This document shows positions 14,647 through 26,185 of a DNA stretch of 32,000 nucleotides, piece by piece. Each line of letters opens with the position of its first letter. The first letter of the stretch is position 1. Source of the stretch: Edaphobacter aggregans (GTDB lineage Bacteria; Acidobacteriota; Terriglobia; Terriglobales; Acidobacteriaceae); NCBI RefSeq assembly GCF_003945235.1, contig NZ_RSDW01000001.1, positions 1,740,001 to 1,772,000 of the forward strand. Reading direction: 5' to 3'. A program made the position numbers and the translations under genes. The notes under the pieces are model-generated. The model saw only the letters and a list, made by a program, of their open reading frames with translations. It did not search any database and had not been told where the DNA came from.

Positions 14647-15108
14647 CTACTCACTAACCTTCGTCTTCTCTGCCAAAGCCGTCAGATCGCTTACTGTCAA
14701 CTCAACTGCATCGCGTTCGCCCTTCATCTCGGCCTTGAACGACTCCGCATTCACCACTTCCAACATCGTCTGCACGCCGAGCACATTCACCTCGCCGGTC
14801 GCCTTCGCCGACTCCCGCAACAGTTGCGGCAACAGCAGTCGACCCTGTGCATCCATCTCAACCATCTGGCCGTAGTAGTTCGTTACGTCCAAAAACTTCT
14901 TCCTTACCGGATCCATCGGTGAGAGCCTGGCCAACTGCGCCTCGATCTTCTCCCACTCCTTCAGCGGCCATATTTCAGCCCGCCGTCCATCCTTGCTCGT
15001 AATAAAAAACTGAGGTCCGTACAGTTCATCGACCCTGCGCTTGAACTCCGCCGGCAGCTTCAGCCGGCCTTTTTCGTCCACGCGAGTTGGGTGATTTCCC
15101 CGAAACAT
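14647..15108 (-). CDS. mraZ: Transcriptional regulator MraZ
   Basis: 153 aa with two SpoVT/AbrB-like halves, each carrying the DxxGR motif (VDEKGRLKLP, MDAQGRLLLP). First gene of the dcw cluster. Confidence 0.95.
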   Translation of the reverse strand: MFRGNHPTRVDEKGRLKLPAEFKRRVDELYGPQFFITSKDGRRAEIWPLKEWEKIEAQLARLSPMDPVRKKFLDVTNYYGQMVEMDAQGRLLLPQLLRESAKATGEVNVLGVQTMLEVVNAESFKAEMKGERDAVELTVSDLTALAEKTKVSE

Positions 15109-19024: not shown

Positions 19025-19297
19025 ATGGCAAGATTCATCCGAGCCGCCGCTGCTGTCCTCTGTGCACTCTGCGTACTTGCCATCTGCATCGCGCCTCTCG
19101 TCGATCTGCCAGACACAAATCTTCGCTCCTACCACCTCGCCATGCTTCTGCTCTTCTCATTGATGGCGGGAGCCACCCTGGCCTGTGCGGAGGCTTTCAA
19201 GCCTGCCACAACCATACGAGTTTGCCTCACTCCCCCTGAGCGAATAAATCACCACCAGCTAGCGCCGATCGATACCAATTCCATTCTGCGGTACTAG
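19025..19297 (+). CDS. Hypothetical 90-aa protein with two hydrophobic helices and five Cys residues (first ORF of the radical SAM operon)
   Basis: MARFIRAAAAVLCALCVLAICIAPLVDLPDTNLRSYHLAMLLLFSLMAGATLACAEAFKPATTIRVCLTPPERINHHQLAPIDTNSILRY. Third-position C/G bias in this frame matches the plus-strand genes. The SD is weak and too close (AAGGA 2 nt from the ATG). No family recognised. Confidence 0.5.
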   Translation: MARFIRAAAAVLCALCVLAICIAPLVDLPDTNLRSYHLAMLLLFSLMAGATLACAEAFKPATTIRVCLTPPERINHHQLAPIDTNSILRY

Positions 19298-19378
19298 TCT
19301 CCAACATCTCCGTTATTCGATTGATCCACCTTCCAGTGGCAACTCCGAATTCAGCGCTTAAGCGCACAAGGAGATCAG

Positions 19379-20383
19379 GTGAAGTCTTCAGAAGTAATGC
19401 AGGCATGGAAGTCCATCCTCTTAGGCAGACGTCCGTCGTTATCGATCGAGATCACCCGTGAATGTCCCCTCCGCTGTCCCGGATGCTACGCCTTCGATCC
19501 AGCCCACCTCGGCGGCGAAGGCAACATCACCCTTCGCCAATTGTCTGATTACAAAGAAGACGCACTCGTCAAAAATGTCCTCCGCGTAGTCGACGAGTAT
19601 CAGCCTCTCCACGTCTCCCTCGTCGGCGGCGACCCCCTCGTCCGATATCGCGAGCTCGAAGCCCTCCTGCCCGAGTTCGACCGTCGCGGCATTCACGTCC
19701 AGATCGTTACCAGCGCCTTCCGCCCCATTCCCGCCCATTGGGCCGACTTCAAACGCCTCAATATCGTGGTCTCCATAGACGGTCTGCAACCCGAACACGA
19801 TATTCGCCGCGCACCTGCGACCTACGAGCGTATATTGAAGAATCTTGCGGAGGCGACCGTTACGATCCACTGCACCATCACCGGCCAGATTGCGGACCAG
19901 CCCGGCTATCTTGAGCGCTTCCTTCAGTTCTGGACCGAGCGCCCCGAAGCCAACAAGGTCTGGATGAGCATCTTTACCCCTCAGCAACGCGCAACAGGCC
20001 CGGAAATCCTTACGCCAAGAGCGCGCGCAAAGGTCATCACCGAACTCCTCCGTCTCCGTCCCCTCTATCCCATCCTCGACATGCACGAGTCAGCACTCCG
20101 GGAGTTCCTCCATCCGCCCCAGTCTCCTGCGGACTGCATCTTCGCCCGCACCACCCACACCATCTCTGCCGATCTCAAGACCGTCATCACCCCTTGCCAA
20201 TTCGGCGGCAATCCCGACTGCTCTCAATGTGGCTGCATAGCATCCATGGGCCTCGCGGCAGTCGGTCACCACAAAGTCGTCGGCGGCCTCACCGCCGGCC
20301 ATCTCTTCAAAGCCTCCGACATCGTCGGAAGAAACCTTAAGAAGCTTTTAGATCATCCCAACAAGAGGTCCGCGATCCAATGA
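19379..20383 (+). CDS. Radical SAM enzyme, HpnH/DUF3463-like architecture, unknown substrate
   Basis: 334 aa. AAGGAG (19368-19373), then 5 nt, then GTG. CX3CX2C cluster motif in EITRECPLRCPGCYAF, GGDPL SAM-binding motif, and a C-terminal Cys cluster C-x7-C-x2-C-x-C (CQFGGNPDCSQCGC). The overall layout (N-terminal helix + core + Cys-rich tail) recalls HpnH-type enzymes; this is from memory, not a search. Confidence 0.88.
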   Translation: MKSSEVMQAWKSILLGRRPSLSIEITRECPLRCPGCYAFDPAHLGGEGNITLRQLSDYKEDALVKNVLRVVDEYQPLHVSLVGGDPLVRYRELEALLPEFDRRGIHVQIVTSAFRPIPAHWADFKRLNIVVSIDGLQPEHDIRRAPATYERILKNLAEATVTIHCTITGQIADQPGYLERFLQFWTERPEANKVWMSIFTPQQRATGPEILTPRARAKVITELLRLRPLYPILDMHESALREFLHPPQSPADCIFARTTHTISADLKTVITPCQFGGNPDCSQCGCIASMGLAAVGHHKVVGGLTAGHLFKASDIVGRNLKKLLDHPNKRSAIQ

Positions 20384-21111
20384 CACAATATCTGACGCAC
20401 CAGACCATTCACGTCGACCGCGCCGATCTCGAATCGTCGTTCCCTTCCTCCGAGTTGGATCTTCGCAGGCAGCTCGTCCGCTTCGGCAGATGGGTTCACC
20501 GCCTCGGCTACACCCCCGGCACCGCCGGCAATCTCTCCGTTCGACTCGACGACCACCTTATCCTCGCCACGCCCACCGGCTGTAGCAAGGGCCTCCTGCA
20601 CGCCGTCGACATGGTCCTCATCGACAACGATGGCAACAAGCTCTCCGGAACCCGCAACGTCACCAGCGAGATCGGTATGCATCTCGCCGTCTACCGTATG
20701 CGACCCGACGTACAAGCCATCGTCCACACCCACCCGCCCATCGCGACCGCCTTCGCCGCATGCGGCAAAGCCCTCGATCAACCCATCTGTTCCGAAATCC
20801 TGATGACCACCGGCCTCGTCCCGCTGGCCCCCTACGCCACCACAGGAACCGAAGAAGTCAGCGCCAGCCTCGAACCCTTCATCCCTGATCACGACGCCAT
20901 CCTGCTCGCAAACCACGGCCTGCTGACCTACGGCTCCTCCCTGCCCGACGCCTTCATGAAGACCGAAACCGTCGAGCACTTCGCCCAGGTCTGCCTCTCC
21001 GCACATCAACTAGGAGGAGCCTCGCCCCTCCGCGACATCGACATCGCCAAACTCCAGCAGGCCCGCGCCCGATACAAACTCAACGCCTCCCGCGGCCCAT
21101 CCTGCCGCTAG
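20380..21111 (+). CDS. Class II aldolase/adducin N-terminal domain protein (FucA/MtnB-like)
   Basis: 243 aa. GTAGNLSVR, SEIGMH (catalytic/metal Glu), VHTHP and ANHGLL (His ligands). The start codon overlaps the radical SAM stop (ATGA at 20380-20383). Confidence 0.85.
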   Translation: MTQYLTHQTIHVDRADLESSFPSSELDLRRQLVRFGRWVHRLGYTPGTAGNLSVRLDDHLILATPTGCSKGLLHAVDMVLIDNDGNKLSGTRNVTSEIGMHLAVYRMRPDVQAIVHTHPPIATAFAACGKALDQPICSEILMTTGLVPLAPYATTGTEEVSASLEPFIPDHDAILLANHGLLTYGSSLPDAFMKTETVEHFAQVCLSAHQLGGASPLRDIDIAKLQQARARYKLNASRGPSCR

Positions 21112-21113
21112 CC

Positions 21114-21162
21114 GGAGAAGCATTCGCTGTGCCCCTCAAAAAGGCATGCGGTATGCTTCTCC
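21114..21162 (+). other. Intercistronic RNA stem-loop (10-bp perfect stem, 29-nt loop) between the aldolase and ABC ATPase genes
   Basis: ggagaagcat (21114-21123) pairs with atgcttctcc (21153-21162). The left arm starts 3 nt after the aldolase TAG. The right arm ends 3 nt before the ATPase ATG at 21166. Confidence 0.5.
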
Positions 21163-21165
21163 CAA

Positions 21166-21996
21166 ATGACCCCAGCCGTCTCCACCACAGGCCTCACTCG
21201 CCGCTTCGGCGACTTCACCGCAGTCGAAGACGTCAATCTTTCCGTCGCACCGGGCCAGTTCTTCGGCTTCCTCGGCCCTAACGGAGCCGGCAAGTCCACG
21301 ACCATCAAGATGCTCACCGGCTTGCTCGCGCCCACCTCCGGCTCCATCGAGATTCTCGGCCTCGACGCCGCCACCAACCCCATCGAAGTCAAGCGTCAGA
21401 TAGGCGTGGTCCCCGAAGGCCTCGCCCTCTTCGGCCGTCTAACCGCAGCCGAATACCTCCGCTTCGTCGGTCGCATGTACGGTCTCGACCGCGCCACCAC
21501 CGCCGACCGTACCCACGAGCTTCTCGACTTCATGAACCTCGCGGCCGAACCCAAAAAGCTCATCACCGACTTTTCCCACGGCATGCAGAAAAAGCTCGCC
21601 CTCGCCGCCGCCGTCATTCATGGCCCCAAAATCCTCTTCCTCGACGAGCCCTTCGAAGGCGTAGACGCCATCGCAGCCGGCACCCTCAAAAACATGCTTC
21701 AACGCATGATCGCCCGCGGCGCAACCATCTTCCTCACCTCGCACGTCCTTGAAATCGTCGAACGCCTCTGCAGCCACATCGCCATCATCGACCGCGGCCG
21801 CCTCATCGCCCAGGGCTCCCTGGAAGAACTCCGCGCTGGCACGAAACCGCTCCACACGACTCCCAACGGCCCCTCCTCGCCGCAACACCTCACCCTCGAA
21901 GAGATCTTCGTCCAAATCGTCGGAACCCAGCAAATCCCCTCCGAGCCAACAACGGCCGTCCTGCCTCCCCCAAAGGAGCTCTCATGGCTCGGTTAA
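21166..21996 (+). CDS. ABC transporter ATP-binding protein (ABC-2/DrrA-type exporter ATPase)
   Basis: 276 aa. Walker A GPNGAGKST, Q-loop, degenerate signature FSHGMQKKLAL, Walker B ILFLDEPFEGVD, H-loop TSH. Confidence 0.93.
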   Translation: MTPAVSTTGLTRRFGDFTAVEDVNLSVAPGQFFGFLGPNGAGKSTTIKMLTGLLAPTSGSIEILGLDAATNPIEVKRQIGVVPEGLALFGRLTAAEYLRFVGRMYGLDRATTADRTHELLDFMNLAAEPKKLITDFSHGMQKKLALAAAVIHGPKILFLDEPFEGVDAIAAGTLKNMLQRMIARGATIFLTSHVLEIVERLCSHIAIIDRGRLIAQGSLEELRAGTKPLHTTPNGPSSPQHLTLEEIFVQIVGTQQIPSEPTTAVLPPPKELSWLG

Positions 21997-23663
21997 CCAC
22001 CATTCCTCGCGCAACCGATCACTTCGCCGCCATCGCCCAACTACGCTGGCGTCTCTTCATCAACGCCTTCCGCGGCAGGAGCGGCAAGATGTCGCTCGCC
22101 GCTCTCATCATCCTGCGCATCATTGTCTACTCCATCGCCGCCGCAATCTCCATCGGACCAATCATTGGCTCTGGCTTTGCTGGCTACTTCGTCATAGCTC
22201 GCTCGGAACCTCTGCTGCTGCCGACCATCCTTTGGATACTCTCAGCCATCTGGTGCTTCATCTCCTTCAGTGCGTCACTGCAGCCTGCGCTGCAATCGGG
22301 CGGCTTCGATCTCTCTCAACTGATTCGCTTCCCCATCAGCTTTCCCTTCTATCTCGGCACACGAATCTTCTTTAGTTTCTTCAGCTACACCACCATCGTC
22401 GGCTTCTGTTGTCTGCTCGCTACGGCCACCGGAATCGGCATTGCCCAACCAGGTCTTTTTCTCTGGGCTGCTCCCGTCCTCCTGCTCTACGGCTTCACAC
22501 TCTTTTCTTTCCTGCGCATGATCTTTCTCTGGCTCGACCGCTGGCTCGCCCAGCGACGCACCCGCGAGATCGTAGCAGCGCTCTTTGTCAGCTTCTCCCT
22601 CGCCGTACAACTCCTCGCCTCATCCGTCCGCAGTCATACAGGCCACTCGCATTCCGCCATCGCCTCGCGCTTTGACCTCCTTGCTCGCGTCATCGTTCGG
22701 CTTCACCCATTTATCGCTTTCTTTCCTCCAAACCTTGCCTCCAACGCAATTCTGCGCATGCACGCCGCGCAGCCAATCCAAGCCATCGCTTCCATGCTCG
22801 GCGTAGCCGCGTTCTGCGCAATCTTTCTCGCCCTGTACGCCCTTCGTCTTCGCGGAGAATTTCGCGGAGAGAACTTCAGCGAAACATCCGCGCGCAGCAC
22901 ACAATCGCCCAGCGGCAAACCGGCCCTTGGTTGGAACCTCTCCGGTCTCTCTCCCGCGCTCGCAGCCTGTATGGAAAAAGAGACACGCTATCTCCTCCGC
23001 GGCGGCAACGCTCTCGTAGGCCTCTTCAGTCCGCTTATCTTCGTTGCTATTCTCACCAACCGCGGCGGTGCACTATCAAGATCGCCTGACATCATGCTTC
23101 CCGCCGCCCTCGCCTACCTCCTGTTCGGACTCTTCGCCACCCTCTACAACGTCTTTGGCACCGACGGCCCTGGCATCCATCTCTACTTCCTCGCACCCGT
23201 CCGCCTTCGCGACGTCTTCATCGCGAAAAACCTCGTCAGCACGGCTCTCATCACCACTGAAGTCCTGCTCGCCACGCTCATCGTCACCTACTCGCACAAG
23301 ATCGCGCCGCCAGTCCTCGCAGCCACACTTCTGTGGTTCGTCTTCGCTCTCTTTACGAACCTCACCGTCGGAAACATCCGCTCTCTTCGCGCCCCACGCC
23401 GAGTCGTCATCGGCAAAACTATGCGCCAGCCTCCCTCACGCGGAGGAGCCTACATTACTCTCCTCGTCCTCTTCGGTTCTCTGTTCCTCTGCATGGCGAC
23501 TCTCTGGCTCTGCCGCCACTTCGGTTACCCCTGGCTGCCCTCGCTCATCTTTCTCGCATTAGCAGCCGCAGCCTTCGCAGCCTATATTCGCGTCCTGCAC
23601 CGAATCGACACGATGGCCCTAGCCCAACGCGACACTCTCACCCGGGAACTCTGCAAAACCTAG
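21984..23663 (+). CDS. Polytopic membrane protein, putative ABC exporter permease partner
   Basis: 559 aa with about 12-14 hydrophobic helices in two blocks separated by a hydrophilic loop (RGEFRGENFSETSARSTQSPSGK...). AAGGAG (21973-21978), then 5 nt, then ATG. 13-nt overlap with the ATPase gene. Confidence 0.8.
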   Translation: MARLTTIPRATDHFAAIAQLRWRLFINAFRGRSGKMSLAALIILRIIVYSIAAAISIGPIIGSGFAGYFVIARSEPLLLPTILWILSAIWCFISFSASLQPALQSGGFDLSQLIRFPISFPFYLGTRIFFSFFSYTTIVGFCCLLATATGIGIAQPGLFLWAAPVLLLYGFTLFSFLRMIFLWLDRWLAQRRTREIVAALFVSFSLAVQLLASSVRSHTGHSHSAIASRFDLLARVIVRLHPFIAFFPPNLASNAILRMHAAQPIQAIASMLGVAAFCAIFLALYALRLRGEFRGENFSETSARSTQSPSGKPALGWNLSGLSPALAACMEKETRYLLRGGNALVGLFSPLIFVAILTNRGGALSRSPDIMLPAALAYLLFGLFATLYNVFGTDGPGIHLYFLAPVRLRDVFIAKNLVSTALITTEVLLATLIVTYSHKIAPPVLAATLLWFVFALFTNLTVGNIRSLRAPRRVVIGKTMRQPPSRGGAYITLLVLFGSLFLCMATLWLCRHFGYPWLPSLIFLALAAAAFAAYIRVLHRIDTMALAQRDTLTRELCKT

Positions 23664-23667
23664 CCGC

Positions 23668-24702
23668 TCAGCGACTAGCCTCCCACTGCCCTGGCACTCC
23701 TGCCTCCGTTGCCGTTGAACCCCATCGCCCGTCCAAGAGACGTCGACCCTCCGGCCCCAGCGTCGCCGAATATGAGCCCATTGCCAGATGTAACTGACGC
23801 GGATGCACACTTTTTATAGATGTTCCCTCAAGAATCACCTGCCGTGTCGCTTCCACATAGTGACCCGTAACCTCTTCGGTGCCGGCTAATTCACCATTCA
23901 GCCGCCAGTTGAATGTCCCCTTCAGCAACAAACCATCCGGCGTCGGCTCCTGCGATGTGAACTGGAGAACCGAATTGCTCCAGTCATTCTTGCTGTCATC
24001 GATCGCATTATGCAGTGTCCATATCCCATACGTCAGGTGAGGAAGAGCACGCGCGGGAGAGGTTTGCGTTACCTGAGATGGCTCAGGCTGCGCAGTAGGA
24101 GGAGTCGACGTCTGAGCCCCCACCTCCGCCGTCTTGTGACTAAATCTCGGCATTACAAAAAGGGCAAAAAGCACACCGGCAAGCACTACTCCGCCCACAG
24201 GAAGAATCGCTGATCGAAACACCGATCGATTCGTGTGTTCAGATTCGAGTGCGGGTCTGGCCGCCGGCGCAGGCGGCGGTACATACGCAGGTCTTGGCGG
24301 TGTCTCTTGTCGAGCCGCCTCCTTTGACTCTAGTCCAAGTCTCTCCACCAGCCGCTCAAGCCCATGCGCATAATCTGTCCTGAAATCGATCCACTGAACC
24401 CGCCCCAACCGAAACGGAATCTCGCACTCCCGATACAGAATCGGAATCACCGTCTTCTTCGACTCCAGCCCAAACGCCACCTCATCCAGCACATTCGGAG
24501 AGTTCACCGAATCCGGCGACAGAATCACCAGCAGATGCTGACAATTCTTCAAAGCATCCTGTACCGTCATGTCCCACCGGTCACCTGGAGCAATATCCTT
24601 ATCCAGCCAAACCATTGCTCCGGCAGCCTTCAGGTCACCTGTCAGTCGAACCGTAAAGTCTGTGTCCACATGGCTGTAGCTGAAAAAGGTACCCAAGGCC
24701 AC
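23668..24702 (-). CDS. TIR domain - TM helix - uncharacterised extracytoplasmic domain protein
   Basis: N-terminus ..FFSYSHVDTDFTVRLTGDLKAAGAMVWLDKDIAPGDRW...HLLVILSPDSVNSPNVLDEVAFG...VIPILYRECEIP...WIDF shows the TIR_2-like pattern. It is followed by a Pro-rich linker, the TM helix AILPVGGVVLAGVLFALFVM, and then a ~150-aa unassigned C-terminal region. The ORF-track start is GTG at 24702, but GGAGG directly abuts it. TTG at 24696 (6-nt spacing) is the more likely start. Confidence 0.85.
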   Translation of the reverse strand: MALGTFFSYSHVDTDFTVRLTGDLKAAGAMVWLDKDIAPGDRWDMTVQDALKNCQHLLVILSPDSVNSPNVLDEVAFGLESKKTVIPILYRECEIPFRLGRVQWIDFRTDYAHGLERLVERLGLESKEAARQETPPRPAYVPPPAPAARPALESEHTNRSVFRSAILPVGGVVLAGVLFALFVMPRFSHKTAEVGAQTSTPPTAQPEPSQVTQTSPARALPHLTYGIWTLHNAIDDSKNDWSNSVLQFTSQEPTPDGLLLKGTFNWRLNGELAGTEEVTGHYVEATRQVILEGTSIKSVHPRQLHLAMGSYSATLGPEGRRLLDGRWGSTATEAGVPGQWEASR

Positions 24703-24763
24703 CCTCCAATCTCGCCGCTATGCACAAAAACATACTCTTCCGCCTGCCCGTGCACCAGCCCAA

Positions 24764-26185
24764 TTACTCAGCCATCCCCTCCAGCACAACCTCGCTTACC
24801 GGCTCTGCCCCAAACTGCCCCTCCCACTTCGCAACCACCACACTTGCCAGGCAATTCCCCACCACATTCACCGTCGTCCGAGCCATATCCGCCAGCGCAT
24901 CGATACCCAAAATCACAAAGATCGGCTCCGTAGGTAGCCGAAACGTAGCCGCAGTAGCCAACAGCACAACCAGCGTAGCCCTCGGAACCCCCGCCACACC
25001 CTTACTGGTCAACATCAGAGTCCCCATCATCAAAAGCTGCTCACCCAACGAAAGATGCACCCCCGCCGCCTGCGCCACAAAGATGCTCGCAGCAGCCAGG
25101 TAAAGCGTCGACCCATCCAGATTGAAGCTATATCCCGCCGGAATCACAAACGACACAATCCGCCGCGGAACCCCCAACGCCTCCATCGACTCCATCGCCC
25201 GCGGCAGCGCCGCCTCACTCGTCGATGTAGCAAACGCAATCGTAGCCGGCTCAGCCACCGCTACCAGAAATCTCTTCACCGGCACCTTGAACAGCAAAGC
25301 AATCGGCAGCAGCACCAGCAGCCCAAACGCCACCAGAGCCCCATAGATCGTCAGCAGCAGCTTGCCCAGATTCACCAGCACGCCCAGCCCCATATGCCCG
25401 ACCGTATACGCCATCGCCGCGCCCACCCCAATCGGCGCAAAGTACATCACCACATTGGTGAACTTGAACATCACCTCGCTCAGGCTCTCGCAAAGCCGCA
25501 GCACAGGCGCCCGCTTCTCCTCACTCAAAGTAGCCAGAGCAATCCCAAAGAAGACCGCAAACACCGCCACCTGCAGAATCTGCCCCTCCGCCACCGACTT
25601 AGCAATATTCTCCGGAAACACATGCAGCAAAAAGTCCTGCCAATGTGTAGGCGGAGGAGCCGTAACCACCTCGCCGCTGCTCACCACCTCAGGCACATGC
25701 AGCCCGACCCCGGCCTTGCTGATATTGATCGCCACCAGCCCCACCACCAGCGCCAGCGTCGTCACCACCTCGAAGTAGACGAGGCTCTTCACGCCCATCC
25801 GCCCCACGCCCTTCAAATCGCCATGCCCCGCAATCCCCGTCACCAGTGTCGCCAGAATCAGCGGAGCCACAATCGTCTTGATCAGCCTCAAAAAGATATC
25901 GCTAAACACCCGCAGCCCCACCCCAACCGCCGGAGCATCGAACCCCACCTCTGCCCCCGCCACCATCGCTACGAAGATCCAGGGCGTCACCGACCGCCGC
26001 CGCCACGCAAACACCATCAACACCACCACACCCAACCACCGCAGCACCATTGCAACGCCGTGCCCAGCCCCCCCATACATCAGCCCCAGAGCAATCCCCG
26101 CAGCCAACAAGCACGCCGCCACCGCCACTAAAACCCGTTCTGAACGCACGTTTTCCATTCCGCGCAGAATACCAGCATCCCCCAA
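24764..26185 (-). CDS. Dicarboxylate/amino acid:cation symporter (DAACS/GltP-DctA family)
   Basis: 473 aa, polytopic. ...FLRLIKTIVAPLILATLVTGIAG..., ...SSEAALP..., ...IPAGYSFNLDGSTLY..., ...ILGIDALADMARTTVNVVGN... are DAACS signatures. Start uncertain: TTG at 26185 or ATG at 26158. Confidence 0.92.
   Translation of the reverse strand: MGDAGILRGMENVRSERVLVAVAACLLAAGIALGLMYGGAGHGVAMVLRWLGVVVLMVFAWRRRSVTPWIFVAMVAGAEVGFDAPAVGVGLRVFSDIFLRLIKTIVAPLILATLVTGIAGHGDLKGVGRMGVKSLVYFEVVTTLALVVGLVAINISKAGVGLHVPEVVSSGEVVTAPPPTHWQDFLLHVFPENIAKSVAEGQILQVAVFAVFFGIALATLSEEKRAPVLRLCESLSEVMFKFTNVVMYFAPIGVGAAMAYTVGHMGLGVLVNLGKLLLTIYGALVAFGLLVLLPIALLFKVPVKRFLVAVAEPATIAFATSTSEAALPRAMESMEALGVPRRIVSFVIPAGYSFNLDGSTLYLAAASIFVAQAAGVHLSLGEQLLMMGTLMLTSKGVAGVPRATLVVLLATAATFRLPTEPIFVILGIDALADMARTTVNVVGNCLASVVVAKWEGQFGAEPVSEVVLEGMAE

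Follow-up and report, generated by a model that had tools for sequence, protein, structure and literature searches.

The window analysed here, a stretch of 32,000 nt from Edaphobacter aggregans, carries five genes on the forward strand, and re-reading of the ORF list placed all of them at the coordinates given in the original prediction. The first gene (19025..19297, 90 aa) encodes a small membrane protein, referred to as type B, and is followed after a gap of 81 nt by an orphan radical SAM gene (19379..20383, 334 aa, PF04055), which starts with GTG at 19379 and has the ribosome-binding site AAGGAG (19368..19373) 5 nt before this start. The third gene codes for a class II aldolase/adducin-family protein (20380..21111, 243 aa, PF00596); the radical SAM stop codon and the aldolase start share the ATGA at 20380-20383. 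Behind a spacer of 54 nt come the genes for an ABC-2/DrrA-type ATPase (21166..21996, 276 aa, PF00005) and its partner permease (21984..23663, 559 aa, ~12 transmembrane segments), which overlap by 13 nt, with an AAGGAG at 21973-21978 standing 5 nt before the permease ATG at 21984. The ATPase and permease genes lie outside the conserved cassette formed by the first three genes, as does a gene for a TIR-domain protein (23668..24702, reverse strand, PF13676) that is convergent with the ABC pair. Direct reading of the sequence bore out every junction claimed earlier.

The spacer between the aldolase and ATPase genes contains an inverted repeat (21114..21163, forward strand) with the arms GGAGAAGCAT at 21114-21123 and ATGCTTCTCC at 21154-21163, which as RNA folds into a hairpin of -28.1 kcal/mol (z = -4.5). 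The predicted stem-loop is thus present, but the closest relatives have not kept it, the 5' arm not being conserved in L086-L089. It is specific to the window and lacks a T-run; it was not called in the terminator scan, and neither a promoter nor a terminator was called in the interval from aldolase to ATPase.

An orphan radical SAM subfamily and its partner genes

The motifs CPLRCPGC and GGDPL expected in the radical SAM protein were both found, the CX3CX2C cluster consisting of C29, C33 and C36. The C-terminal arrangement C273-x7-C281-x2-C284-x-C286 was likewise confirmed and was, together with C253, invariant in 83/83 relatives, so that the subfamily has eight invariant cysteines. The five C-terminal ones (C253, C273, C281, C284, C286) probably hold an auxiliary Fe-S cluster. 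PF04055 (48.5 bits) was the sole domain-level match in Pfam, and no cut-off was passed in the NCBIfam search. The label 'HpnH/DUF3463-type' had to be given up: TIGR03470, the HpnH model, gave only 21.3 bits where 225 are required, and PF11946, the model for DUF3463, was not matched even at E <= 10. A sequence search of the PDB matched nothing, and the best Foldseek TM-scores obtained with an AF2 model (pLDDT 73.6) were below 0.5. Relatives occur in at least 587 species, the best 80 being all from Acidobacteriaceae. The protein is a member of an orphan subfamily.

For the aldolase, the motifs SEIGMH, HTHP and NHG were present as predicted, GNLS and TPTG are also kept, and the class II assignment was supported by PF00596 with 166.8 bits in the Pfam search. 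Among the NCBIfam equivalogs no cut-off was passed (best OtnC, 139 versus 250), and by phmmer the protein was about equally distant from PDB 6VOQ, 6BTD (DrdA) and FucA (roughly 1e-24 to 1e-29).

That the 90-aa ORF is a genuine gene is reflected in two hydrophobic segments in the hydropathy profile, 328 homologue clusters and a dN/dS of 0.17-0.41. The clusters comprise proteins of 80-110 aa, every one of them 'hypothetical' and from Acidobacteriaceae; the protein matches no Pfam or NCBIfam model. Alignments place basic residues at the cytoplasmic sides and an acidic loop between the helices, and the predicted cytoplasmic tail of 35 aa ends in ...LAPIDTNSILRY. The most conserved stretch of the alignment is TM1-loop-TM2 (MPxTExxWxxDxFLRGGQDFE), periplasmic loop included. 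The small two-helix proteins upstream of radical SAM genes fall into two families, types A and B, between which no homology was detectable; in both, the end of the tail is conserved behind a variable linker, as Y-x-L-P-[LI]-x-[IV] in type A and as ...LPPI[DQ]TN[SC][IV]xx in type B.

Conservation of the gene arrangement was followed in 83 loci sampled by radical SAM similarity. In 44/83 loci, a small two-helix ORF precedes the radical SAM gene on the same strand and ends 74-209 nt before it (the type B gene always on the same strand, 74-131 nt upstream), and the small protein gene was missing in 38 of the 82 testable ones. In the reverse test with the type A small protein, a radical SAM gene lay <400 bp downstream in 33/40 metagenome loci, and the aldolase was also there in 18 of the 22 with enough downstream sequence. 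The 90-aa ORF thus belongs with the radical SAM gene (44/83; 33/40), as had been supposed. An aldolase gene was found within 400 nt of the radical SAM gene in 32/83 loci, in ~19 different flanking contexts. The combination of radical SAM and class II aldolase that the original prediction had singled out is kept across taxa. Both partners were near in 28 loci and neither in 35, so the genes need not lie side by side. Three type B small proteins from three unrelated contexts were each followed by radical SAM and Aldolase_II genes.

Even distant radical SAM relatives, only 48% identical, have an Aldolase_II gene behind them, with an overlap of 4 nt in P0125/L085 and a gap of 14 nt in P0147, and the small protein is absent beside these distant pairs. 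In L085 the aldolase represents another branch of Aldolase_II, the YuxG/RhaD-ADH N-terminal type, and matched the window protein only at E = 0.009. Another distant relative (P0124/L083) is accompanied by a flavodoxin-like gene and lacks the aldolase.

Altogether, this is a conserved, uncharacterised cassette from soil Acidobacteriaceae, and the small two-helix membrane protein, the orphan radical SAM enzyme and the class II aldolase very probably form one conserved functional unit. The radical SAM and aldolase combination appears undescribed, since no curated family covers it and a literature search on this combination or this radical SAM family found nothing.

The variable site downstream of the cassette

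The five-gene unit proposed earlier shrinks to these three genes, because the ABC pair adjoins them only in the immediate clade of the window. Walker A (GPNGAGKS) and DEP are present in the ATPase, which scored best in NCBIfam with the DrrA subfamily TIGR01188 (246.7, cut-off 312). The permease, with ~12 hydrophobic segments, matches no Pfam model, including PF16962 which had been suggested for it; some homologues carry PF09847 (12TM_1). The L089 permease is only 56% identical, compared with 88-98% for the neighbouring genes, an unusually fast divergence.

The pair follows the aldolase only in L086-L089 and was found beside the cassette nowhere else in the 82 scanned loci and the type B contexts. 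Loci without it include close relatives with radical SAM proteins 84-91% identical, and it is missing in the close relatives L003, L004, L150 and L151. There the site between the aldolase and a convergent GltP-like gene is empty (L003) or occupied by an alginate lyase (L004, L150, L151). Orthologous ABC pairs of other genera sit after SppA-HU, among them those of Granulicella, to whose ATPases the window protein is 77% identical. The TIR protein (PF13676 at 91 bits, with a central hydrophobic segment) gave only generic TIR matches in PADLOC, and its gene is present in L086 and L087 and absent in L088 and L089. Downstream of the cassette there is thus a variable site, which holds the ABC pair and the TIR gene as neighbours; in all likelihood the pair does not belong to the cassette itself.

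A candidate pathway and its alternatives

With a probability of roughly one half, the cassette encodes a membrane-tethered small-molecule pathway in which radical SAM enzyme and aldolase would both take part and which would run over a ribose-derived deoxy-ketose phosphate. The aldolase retains all metal, catalytic and phosphate-binding motifs found in the deoxy-ketose 1-phosphate-cleaving enzymes FucA and DrdA, and to our knowledge the adenosyl ribose of SAM is the only source of a ketose phosphate generically tied to radical SAM chemistry. On these grounds the aldolase would most likely split a 5-substituted 5-deoxy-ribulose-1-phosphate into DHAP and an aldehyde, the substrate deriving either from the by-product 5'-deoxyadenosine or from an adenosylated intermediate. 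The phosphorylase or nucleosidase and isomerase steps needed would be supplied by housekeeping genes elsewhere. In Acidobacteriaceae, the cytoplasmic tail of the small protein would probably dock the enzyme at the inner membrane face or regulate it; that the tail is a dock rather than a substrate is a tentative prediction, and a ribose-derived aldolase substrate, taken by itself, is still more doubtful. Of the three mechanisms put forward in the original prediction, the two that invoke a ribose or deoxy-ketose would gain from the depth at which radical SAM and aldolase genes are linked. Against the candidate pathway, the known 5-deoxyribose and DHAP-shunt clusters, in which DrdA (6BTD) is the 5-deoxyribulose-1-P aldolase, are defined by kinase or phosphorylase plus isomerase genes (PMC6079011), and no kinase, phosphorylase or isomerase gene was present in any cassette examined. 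Translational coupling to one radical SAM enzyme is also not expected for a generic by-product salvage enzyme.

The original prediction had all five genes in one operon, the ABC pair serving specifically to export what radical SAM enzyme and aldolase make. The shared strand, the 54-nt gap and 13-nt overlap and the lack of a called promoter or terminator between aldolase and ATPase would fit this, as would the retention of the arrangement in L086-L089 despite a permease at 56% identity. However, the clade-only adjacency, the empty or alginate lyase-containing site in L003, L004, L150 and L151 and the location of the orthologues after SppA-HU in other genera speak against a dedicated exporter of the conserved pathway; judged by this comparative context, the five-gene operon seems largely refuted and is highly improbable.

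It is also unlikely, to a lesser degree, that the radical SAM enzyme modifies the small protein at its cytoplasmic C-terminal tail, for instance by epimerising, cross-linking or C-terminally processing it, with the aldolase-family protein in a tailoring or accessory role. Such a RiPP-like system would account for a short ORF directly upstream on the same strand at constant distance, for the conserved extreme C-terminus behind a variable linker, and for an enzyme that has an auxiliary Cys cluster and roughly matches the small peptide-modifying radical SAM enzymes in size. The best neighbours of this enzyme in NCBIfam and Foldseek, although weak, also have peptides or proteins as substrates (PapB, FlmE/OhkG, PqqE, TigE, PFL-AE, EpeE). 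Nevertheless, every structural match stayed below a TM-score of 0.5, no reactive side chain recurs consistently in all tails, and searches for an RRE, a SPASM Pfam domain, a protease and a conserved exporter found none. The small protein is missing beside the distant radical SAM-aldolase pairs and in 38/82 testable loci, and an aldolase with intact sugar-phosphate motifs would have no obvious role. Conservation peaks in TM1-loop-TM2 rather than in the tail, and the RiPP reading is weaker since the small protein spans the membrane with two helices, is confined to a lineage and has its periplasmic loop best conserved. Least probable of all is a membrane-lipid-modifying enzyme tethered by the small protein, with the aldolase recycling the stoichiometric 5'-deoxyadenosine; it might couple iso-fatty-acid tails to iso-diabolic acid or perform a hopanoid- or isoprenoid-modifying step. 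The known Mss synthase is absent from Acidobacteria, and a Tes homologue was present in only 3/14 producers (PMC13159169), which leaves room for another membrane-spanning-lipid synthase. A family centred on Acidobacteriaceae and widespread there, a membrane protein as partner and sub-threshold NCBIfam matches to the lipid enzymes HpnH and Tes would agree with such a role. These scores (20-30 bits), however, stem solely from the radical SAM core that the families have in common, the protein with its 334 aa is far smaller than Tes (486 positions in the NCBIfam model), 35/83 loci lack the partner genes, and adjacency to dxs is confined to the clade of the window.

Comparison with known systems

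The ABC pair resembles DrrAB/ABC-2 exporters in the Walker A, Walker B and signature motifs of the ATPase and in a permease of ~12 transmembrane segments whose gene overlaps that of the ATPase, but the ATPase stays under the DrrA cut-off, the permease matches no curated family, and the pair is a separate two-gene module with other contexts in other genera. With the EpeE/YydG epimerases, PapB and TigE, which are among its best, weak structural and HMM neighbours, the window enzyme shares the short ORF directly upstream, a size of ~330 aa and a C-terminal Cys cluster. It differs in TM-scores of only 0.34-0.49 and HMM scores of 20-30 bits where cut-offs start at 170, in the lack of a detected SPASM or RRE domain, in a 'precursor' that is a two-helix membrane protein with conserved periplasmic loop, and in having as conserved partner an aldolase, not a protease or exporter.

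HpnH (adenosylhopane synthase, TIGR03470, with DUF3463/PF11946 as C-terminal domain) has a radical SAM core of similar size, an N-terminal helix followed by the CX3CX2C strand and a Cys-rich C-terminal region. HpnH sequences presumably also share a 'C..GNP...C..C' flavour with the window protein, which we take as a lead only. The HMM results given above (21.3 versus 225 bits; PF11946 unmatched) set the two apart, the neighbourhood gene tables read contained no hopanoid genes (shc, hpnG etc.), and the dxs neighbour is limited to the clade of the window.

In the futalosine pathway (MqnE...MqnD) and in HpnH/HpnG, the ribose of SAM enters the product and is cleaved later. The candidate pathway would resemble both in concept, with a radical SAM step first and a retro-aldol-type reaction on a ribose-derived moiety afterwards; the window protein, however, belongs by sequence to neither MqnE nor HpnH, and its cassette has no nucleosidase gene. 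With the DHAP-dependent class II aldolases FucA, DrdA/Ald2 (6BTD) and the OtnC/YgbL-like 6VOQ, the aldolase has in common the PF00596 fold, three His as metal ligands, a catalytic Glu and, for phosphate binding, GN(L)S and TPTG, but it passes no equivalog cut-off. It differs from the aldolases of the 5-deoxyribose/DHAP-shunt clusters (PMC6079011) in having no kinase or phosphorylase plus isomerase neighbours, and from FucA, DrdA/Ald2 and 6VOQ in being coupled to one specific radical SAM gene.

Gene content and conservation of the cassette

Five ORFs follow one another on the plus strand of the window as the original prediction had placed them: a small ORF of 90 aa (19025-19297), a radical SAM ORF of 334 aa with a GTG start (19379-20383), a class II aldolase ORF of 243 aa (20380-21111), an ATPase ORF of 276 aa (21166-21996) and a permease ORF of 559 aa (21984-23663). 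Comparison with relatives divided this proposed five-gene operon: the first three genes, hereafter the cassette, were conserved, and the ABC pair formed by the last two was not part of the conserved unit.

To document gene content, the window proteins were mapped onto 83 loci picked by radical SAM similarity. An aldolase gene was located within 400 nt of the radical SAM gene in 32 of the 83 loci (30 downstream and co-directional, 2 divergent), and a two-helix small ORF ended 74-209 nt upstream on the same strand in 44. Two small membrane-protein families were distinguished, type A and type B, the latter containing the 90-aa ORF of the window. Type B occurred together with an aldolase at 11/83 loci and type A with an aldolase at 17/83; type A without an aldolase was found at 16/83, an aldolase without a small ORF at 4/83 and neither of them at 35/83, some of these last loci having short flanks. 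In the 38 testable loci lacking type A and type B, two-helix ORFs of another kind were not detected upstream, and loci without an aldolase showed no alternative conserved downstream partner. Pairing of the radical SAM gene with an aldolase gene extends well beyond this genome, and the aldolase-linked loci represent about 19 distinct flanking contexts.

The reverse test gave a similar picture. Since the broad type A alignment was too divergent for metagenome search patterns, a narrower alignment was used; a radical SAM gene followed less than 400 bp downstream of type A in 33 of 40 metagenome loci, and an aldolase gene was present too in 18 of the 22 loci with sufficient downstream sequence. 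The other 7 of the 40 loci, e.g. L108, had no downstream radical SAM gene. For type B, three proteins were looked up, one each in a dxs, a RimP-NusA and a TonB-type context, and radical SAM and Aldolase_II genes came after all three.

Behind radical SAM genes of relatives with only 48% identity there was likewise an Aldolase_II gene, overlapping by 4 nt at locus L085 and separated by 14 nt for the relative P0147. The L085 aldolase falls in the YuxG/RhaD-ADH N-terminal branch and can hardly be aligned with the window aldolase (E = 0.009), and the ORF upstream of the L085 radical SAM gene does not encode a membrane protein. Because such distant relatives are paired with an aldolase of a different branch, radical SAM plus Aldolase_II is the deepest association, the small membrane protein being added only in the Acidobacteriaceae branch. 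Full-text literature searches on the gene combination and on acidobacterial radical SAM candidates returned nothing specific.

Further genes were noted at several loci. At L085 a second radical SAM-like gene (2-1237), judged by eye as B12-binding/DUF4070-type, lies upstream of the pair. A third distant relative, 45% identical to the window radical SAM protein, has no aldolase beside it and is directly preceded by a flavodoxin-like NAD(P)H oxidoreductase gene (Flavodoxin_2; 4833-5579 in L083 and 772-1518 in L084), the product of which could be its reductant partner. The clade of L053 and L066 has neither the small membrane protein nor the aldolase; in both loci a short ORF lying about 140-320 nt ahead of the radical SAM gene ends ...CETPLLKAILEYH.NM.AG, and the shared stretch could be conserved either as a small ORF or as non-coding DNA. 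L141, considered as a distant triad, was rejected as frameshifted and located on a low-quality contig.

The gene junctions could be read from the window sequence as predicted: an 81-nt gap with AAGGAG-5 nt-GTG upstream of the radical SAM gene, an ATGA overlap between the radical SAM and aldolase genes, a 54-nt spacer with a 10-bp inverted repeat between the aldolase and ATPase genes, and a 13-nt overlap with AAGGAG-5 nt-ATG joining the ATPase and permease genes. As RNA, the spacer folds strongly (-28.1 kcal/mol, z = -4.5). A conserved terminator or regulatory element was nevertheless rejected, as the 5' arm of the hairpin is not kept in L086-L089, the loci of the immediate clade; together with the absence of a T-run and of a call by the terminator scan, this led us to regard the hairpin as window-specific. 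Promoter and terminator scans gave nothing informative inside the gene cluster, an Rfam search of the window detected neither riboswitches nor other RNA families, and PADLOC matched the cassette to no defence system.

The transporter genes and the surrounding region

The ATPase (21166-21996) matched PF00005 with 102.8 bits and has the motifs GPNGAGKS, FSHG and DEP; against the DrrA subfamily it scored 246.7, below the cut-off of 312. The permease (21984-23663) has about 12 hydrophobic segments and matched no curated family, and some of its homologues carry PF09847. With the ATPase motifs and an overlapping gene for a polytopic permease, the pair has the features of an ABC-2/DrrA-type transporter. 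Its proposed role as the exporter of a conserved cassette did not hold, since the pair was beside the cassette in 0 of 82 loci scanned. A lookup of permease homologues recovered the arrangement of the window only in the immediate clade L086-L089, and an orthologous ABC pair follows SppA and HU genes in Granulicella and another genus, with an ATPase 77% identical.

The site between the aldolase gene and a convergent GltP-like gene (21110-24765) was empty in L003, where the aldolase gene abuts the GltP-like gene. An alginate lyase gene occupied it in L004, L150 and L151. L088 and L089 had only the ABC pair there; in the window, L086 and L087 the pair was accompanied by a TIR gene (23668-24702, minus strand). 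Judged from adjacency, the clade-restricted arrangement, these differing contents, the SppA-HU orthologues and the presence or absence of the TIR gene, the site downstream of the cassette is variable and the ABC pair an independent two-gene module. Read-through co-transcription of the pair with the cassette is possible in this strain. The operon boundary is thereby corrected, and the ABC exporter is unfit for inferring the product of the pathway.

The permease was only 56% identical between the window and L089 (7001-8680), at neighbours showing 92% (ATPase), 98% (dxs), 95% (GltP-like), 89.5% (radical SAM) and 91% (aldolase) identity. The divergence runs along the full length of the permease (24-77% per 50 aa), and between genera the permease drops to about 40%, at an ATPase identity that stays at 77%. 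This suggests diversifying selection or allele replacement. The TIR protein consists of a PF13676 domain (residues 6-119), a Pro-rich linker, one hydrophobic segment and a C-terminal part of about 130 aa that matched no family; PADLOC gave only generic TIR matches, and genes for known TIR-defence partners were not found nearby.

Upstream of the cluster lie the cell division and cell wall genes ftsW, murD, mraY, murF, murE and a PBP gene on the minus strand, as well as a MraZ homologue (14647-15108), the position of which equals that of the Pfam MraZ gene of L086; genes for DUF2127, an SRPBCC protein and dxs follow after these. Downstream, beyond the TIR gene, follow the GltP-like gene, with an SDF (PF00375) gene as counterpart in L086 and L089, and a gene matching the DUF4440 gene of the same two loci. 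Genes for a histidine kinase (counterpart in L089 with GAF, PAS, HisKA and HATPase_c) and an AMP-binding, acyl/acetyl-CoA synthetase-like enzyme (counterpart in L089 also with ACAS_N) are located further downstream. The closest protein matches came from Edaphobacter, Granulicella and other Acidobacteriaceae.

The whole stretch (1-32000) has an extreme strand composition bias, with an overall GC skew of -0.31 that resides mainly in third codon positions (-0.51 to -0.73 in plus-strand and +0.50 to +0.69 in minus-strand genes). In several relatives the absolute GC skew reached 0.25-0.31 over 21 kb, the locus median being 0.07, and strong strand bias was also noted at L003, L004, L033, L045 and L078. 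The cassette lies on the C-rich strand, presumably the lagging strand. Codon-usage gene calling is unreliable here because the bias is so extreme; the loci were mapped by tblastn and HMM searches, plus precomputed gene calls.

Protein families of the cassette

The radical SAM protein (gene at 19379-20383) matched PF04055 with 48.5 bits (threshold 29.5), which places it in the radical SAM superfamily, and all motifs described for it were found, namely CPLRCPGC, GGDPL (residues 83-87) and C-x7-C-x2-C-x-C. In 83/83 relatives C29-x3-C33-x2-C36 was invariant, as were C253, C273, C281, C284 and C286, giving eight invariant Cys, of which the five C-terminal ones are compatible with an auxiliary cluster. 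The HpnH/DUF3463 label of the original prediction had to be dropped: TIGR03470 gave 21.3 bits against a cut-off of 225 with only core residues 22-163 matched, and even a limit of E <= 10 gave no PF11946 match, be it with the full protein or with its last 106 aa taken alone. Hopanoid genes (shc, hpnG and others) were absent from the window and from the neighbourhood gene tables read; dxs alone lies nearby, and this only in the clade of the window.

Pfam matches of the protein were restricted to the generic PF04055 and Fer4_12, NCBIfam matches all scored 15-30 bits over the shared core, SPASM Pfam models did not match, and the twitch model NF033640 gave 29.9 against a cut-off of 170. A profile built from the radical SAM alignment matched no PDB entry at E <= 0.01, and what Foldseek retrieved for the AlphaFold2 model (pLDDT 73.6) were only generic radical SAM folds (TigE, PFL-AE, EpeE, DesII, viperin), all of them at TM-scores below 0.5. 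Since the family matches are generic, solved structures are not reached by sequence and the structural matches are weak, the protein belongs to an orphan subfamily with the eight invariant Cys as its hallmark. Relatives were detected in at least 587 species when one genome per species was scanned; the best 80 were all from Acidobacteriaceae, and tblastn against plasmids gave remote radical SAM matches only.

The aldolase (gene at 20380-21111) scored 166.8 bits with PF00596 (threshold 22.2) and is thus a member of the class II aldolase/adducin superfamily. The predicted motifs SEIGMH, HTHP and NHG were confirmed; together with GNLS and TPTG they align with the structures 6VOQ and 6BTD, so that all metal, catalytic and phosphate-binding motifs are kept. 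No equivalog cut-off was reached among FucA, MtnB, OtnC, ribulose-1-P aldolase and AraD (score/cut-off: OtnC 139.1/250, RU1P aldolase 129.9/300, FucA 122.9/264, MtnB 95.9/226), and the protein is about equidistant from 6VOQ, the 5-deoxyribulose-1-P aldolase DrdA (6BTD) and FucA.

Type A small proteins comprise about 100-150 aa with two hydrophobic helices, an almost invariant inter-helix loop MPxTExxWxxDxFLRGGQDFELGLL (P, T, D, G, D and E invariant), then, past helix 2, about 50 variable residues and the end Y-x-L-P-[LI]-x-[IV]. Their genes lie about 100-500 nt ahead of that for the radical SAM enzyme, e.g. in L016, L018, L020, L023 and L045, and no Pfam or NCBIfam model exists for them. Type B proteins (82-103 aa, including that encoded at 19025-19297) have ...CIAP.VD.P... 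between the helices and a conserved end ...LPPI[DQ]TN[SC][IV]xx; they form 328 clusters, none of them named, and their dN/dS of 0.17-0.41 points to purifying selection. Homology between both types was not detectable by hhalign. From the charge pattern, with basic residues before helix 1 and after helix 2 and an acidic loop, an N-in, C-in topology is predicted, which would place the conserved C-terminal tail in the cytoplasm.

Putative chemistry and relation to known systems

Both Aldolase_II branches found beside the radical SAM family are known for cleaving terminal-deoxy ketose phosphates, and the radical SAM enzymes HpnH and MqnE adenosylate their substrates. 5-Deoxyribulose-1-P derives from 5'-deoxyadenosine (PMC6079011), and we infer that it is the one ketose phosphate tied to radical SAM turnover generally. 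The intact ketose 1-phosphate motifs, the recruitment of two Aldolase_II branches and this 5-deoxyribulose-1-P link favour a two-enzyme small-molecule pathway with a ribose-derived intermediate. In such a pathway the aldolase would cleave a ribose-derived ketose 1-phosphate to DHAP and an aldehyde, the phosphorylase/nucleosidase and isomerase steps being supplied from elsewhere in the genome; a 5-substituted analogue of 5-deoxyribulose-1-P would arise if the radical SAM enzyme adenosylates its substrate. The tail of the small protein, with its predicted cytoplasmic position, may dock or regulate the radical SAM enzyme, or may serve as its substrate. Against this model, no cassette contains a kinase or isomerase gene, the aldolase is absent beside 51 of 83 radical SAM genes, and a general salvage enzyme would have no clear reason to be tied to one radical SAM enzyme.

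In the main rival explanation, the tail of the small protein would be the target of a system that modifies peptides or proteins. Gene order, with the small ORF adjoining the radical SAM gene, would fit such a system, as would the conserved C-terminal motif and the weak similarity to peptide-modifying radical SAM enzymes. However, it is the loop and not the tail that is best conserved in this two-helix membrane protein, the tails share no common reactive residue, and only one lineage has the small protein; moreover, no RRE/PqqD domain, protease or conserved exporter was found. A different proposal has the membrane-tethered radical SAM enzyme modify a bulk lipid, either as the missing acidobacterial enzyme that would couple the tails of iso-fatty acids to give iso-diabolic acid or in an adenosylating step on a lipid or isoprenoid, and the aldolase cleave the resulting ribose-derived 5-deoxy-ketose phosphate. 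The palaeoclimate biomarkers known as brGDGTs presumably derive from iso-diabolic acid. Acidobacteria lack the membrane-spanning-lipid synthase Mss, and a Tes homologue was present in only 3 of 14 producers (PMC13159169; PMC8941075), leaving room for a speculative lipid role of a membrane-tethered radical SAM enzyme found throughout Acidobacteriaceae. We nonetheless consider this proposal very improbable.

The two-enzyme pathway is the preferred reading. Elucidating the chemistry of the cassette would establish either a novel radical SAM reaction coupled to the cleavage of deoxy-ketose phosphates or a new kind of radical SAM enzyme directed by a membrane protein. Acidobacteriaceae rank with the most abundant bacteria of soils, and for a large part of the genes conserved in this family no function is known. 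The cassette is present in hundreds of species, and we found neither a curated family nor a publication covering it; its genes are also concrete candidates to account for acidobacterial traits that lack an explanation, membrane-spanning lipids among them.

Compared with known systems, the cassette sits within the radical SAM and class II aldolase superfamilies and outside HpnH, all aldolase equivalogs tested and the 5-deoxyribose/DHAP-shunt clusters. In the latter, the aldolase (DrdA/Ald2) stands beside a kinase/phosphorylase (DrdK/MtnP) and an isomerase (DrdI/MtnA) (PMC6079011), whereas genes of these kinds were absent on either side of the aldolase, both in the window and in the loci tabulated. 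Nor is the cassette a member of a recognised RiPP class, the aldolase being its only conserved downstream partner. Combined in the cassette are an orphan radical SAM subfamily, class II aldolases of two branches and previously unrecognised families of small membrane proteins.
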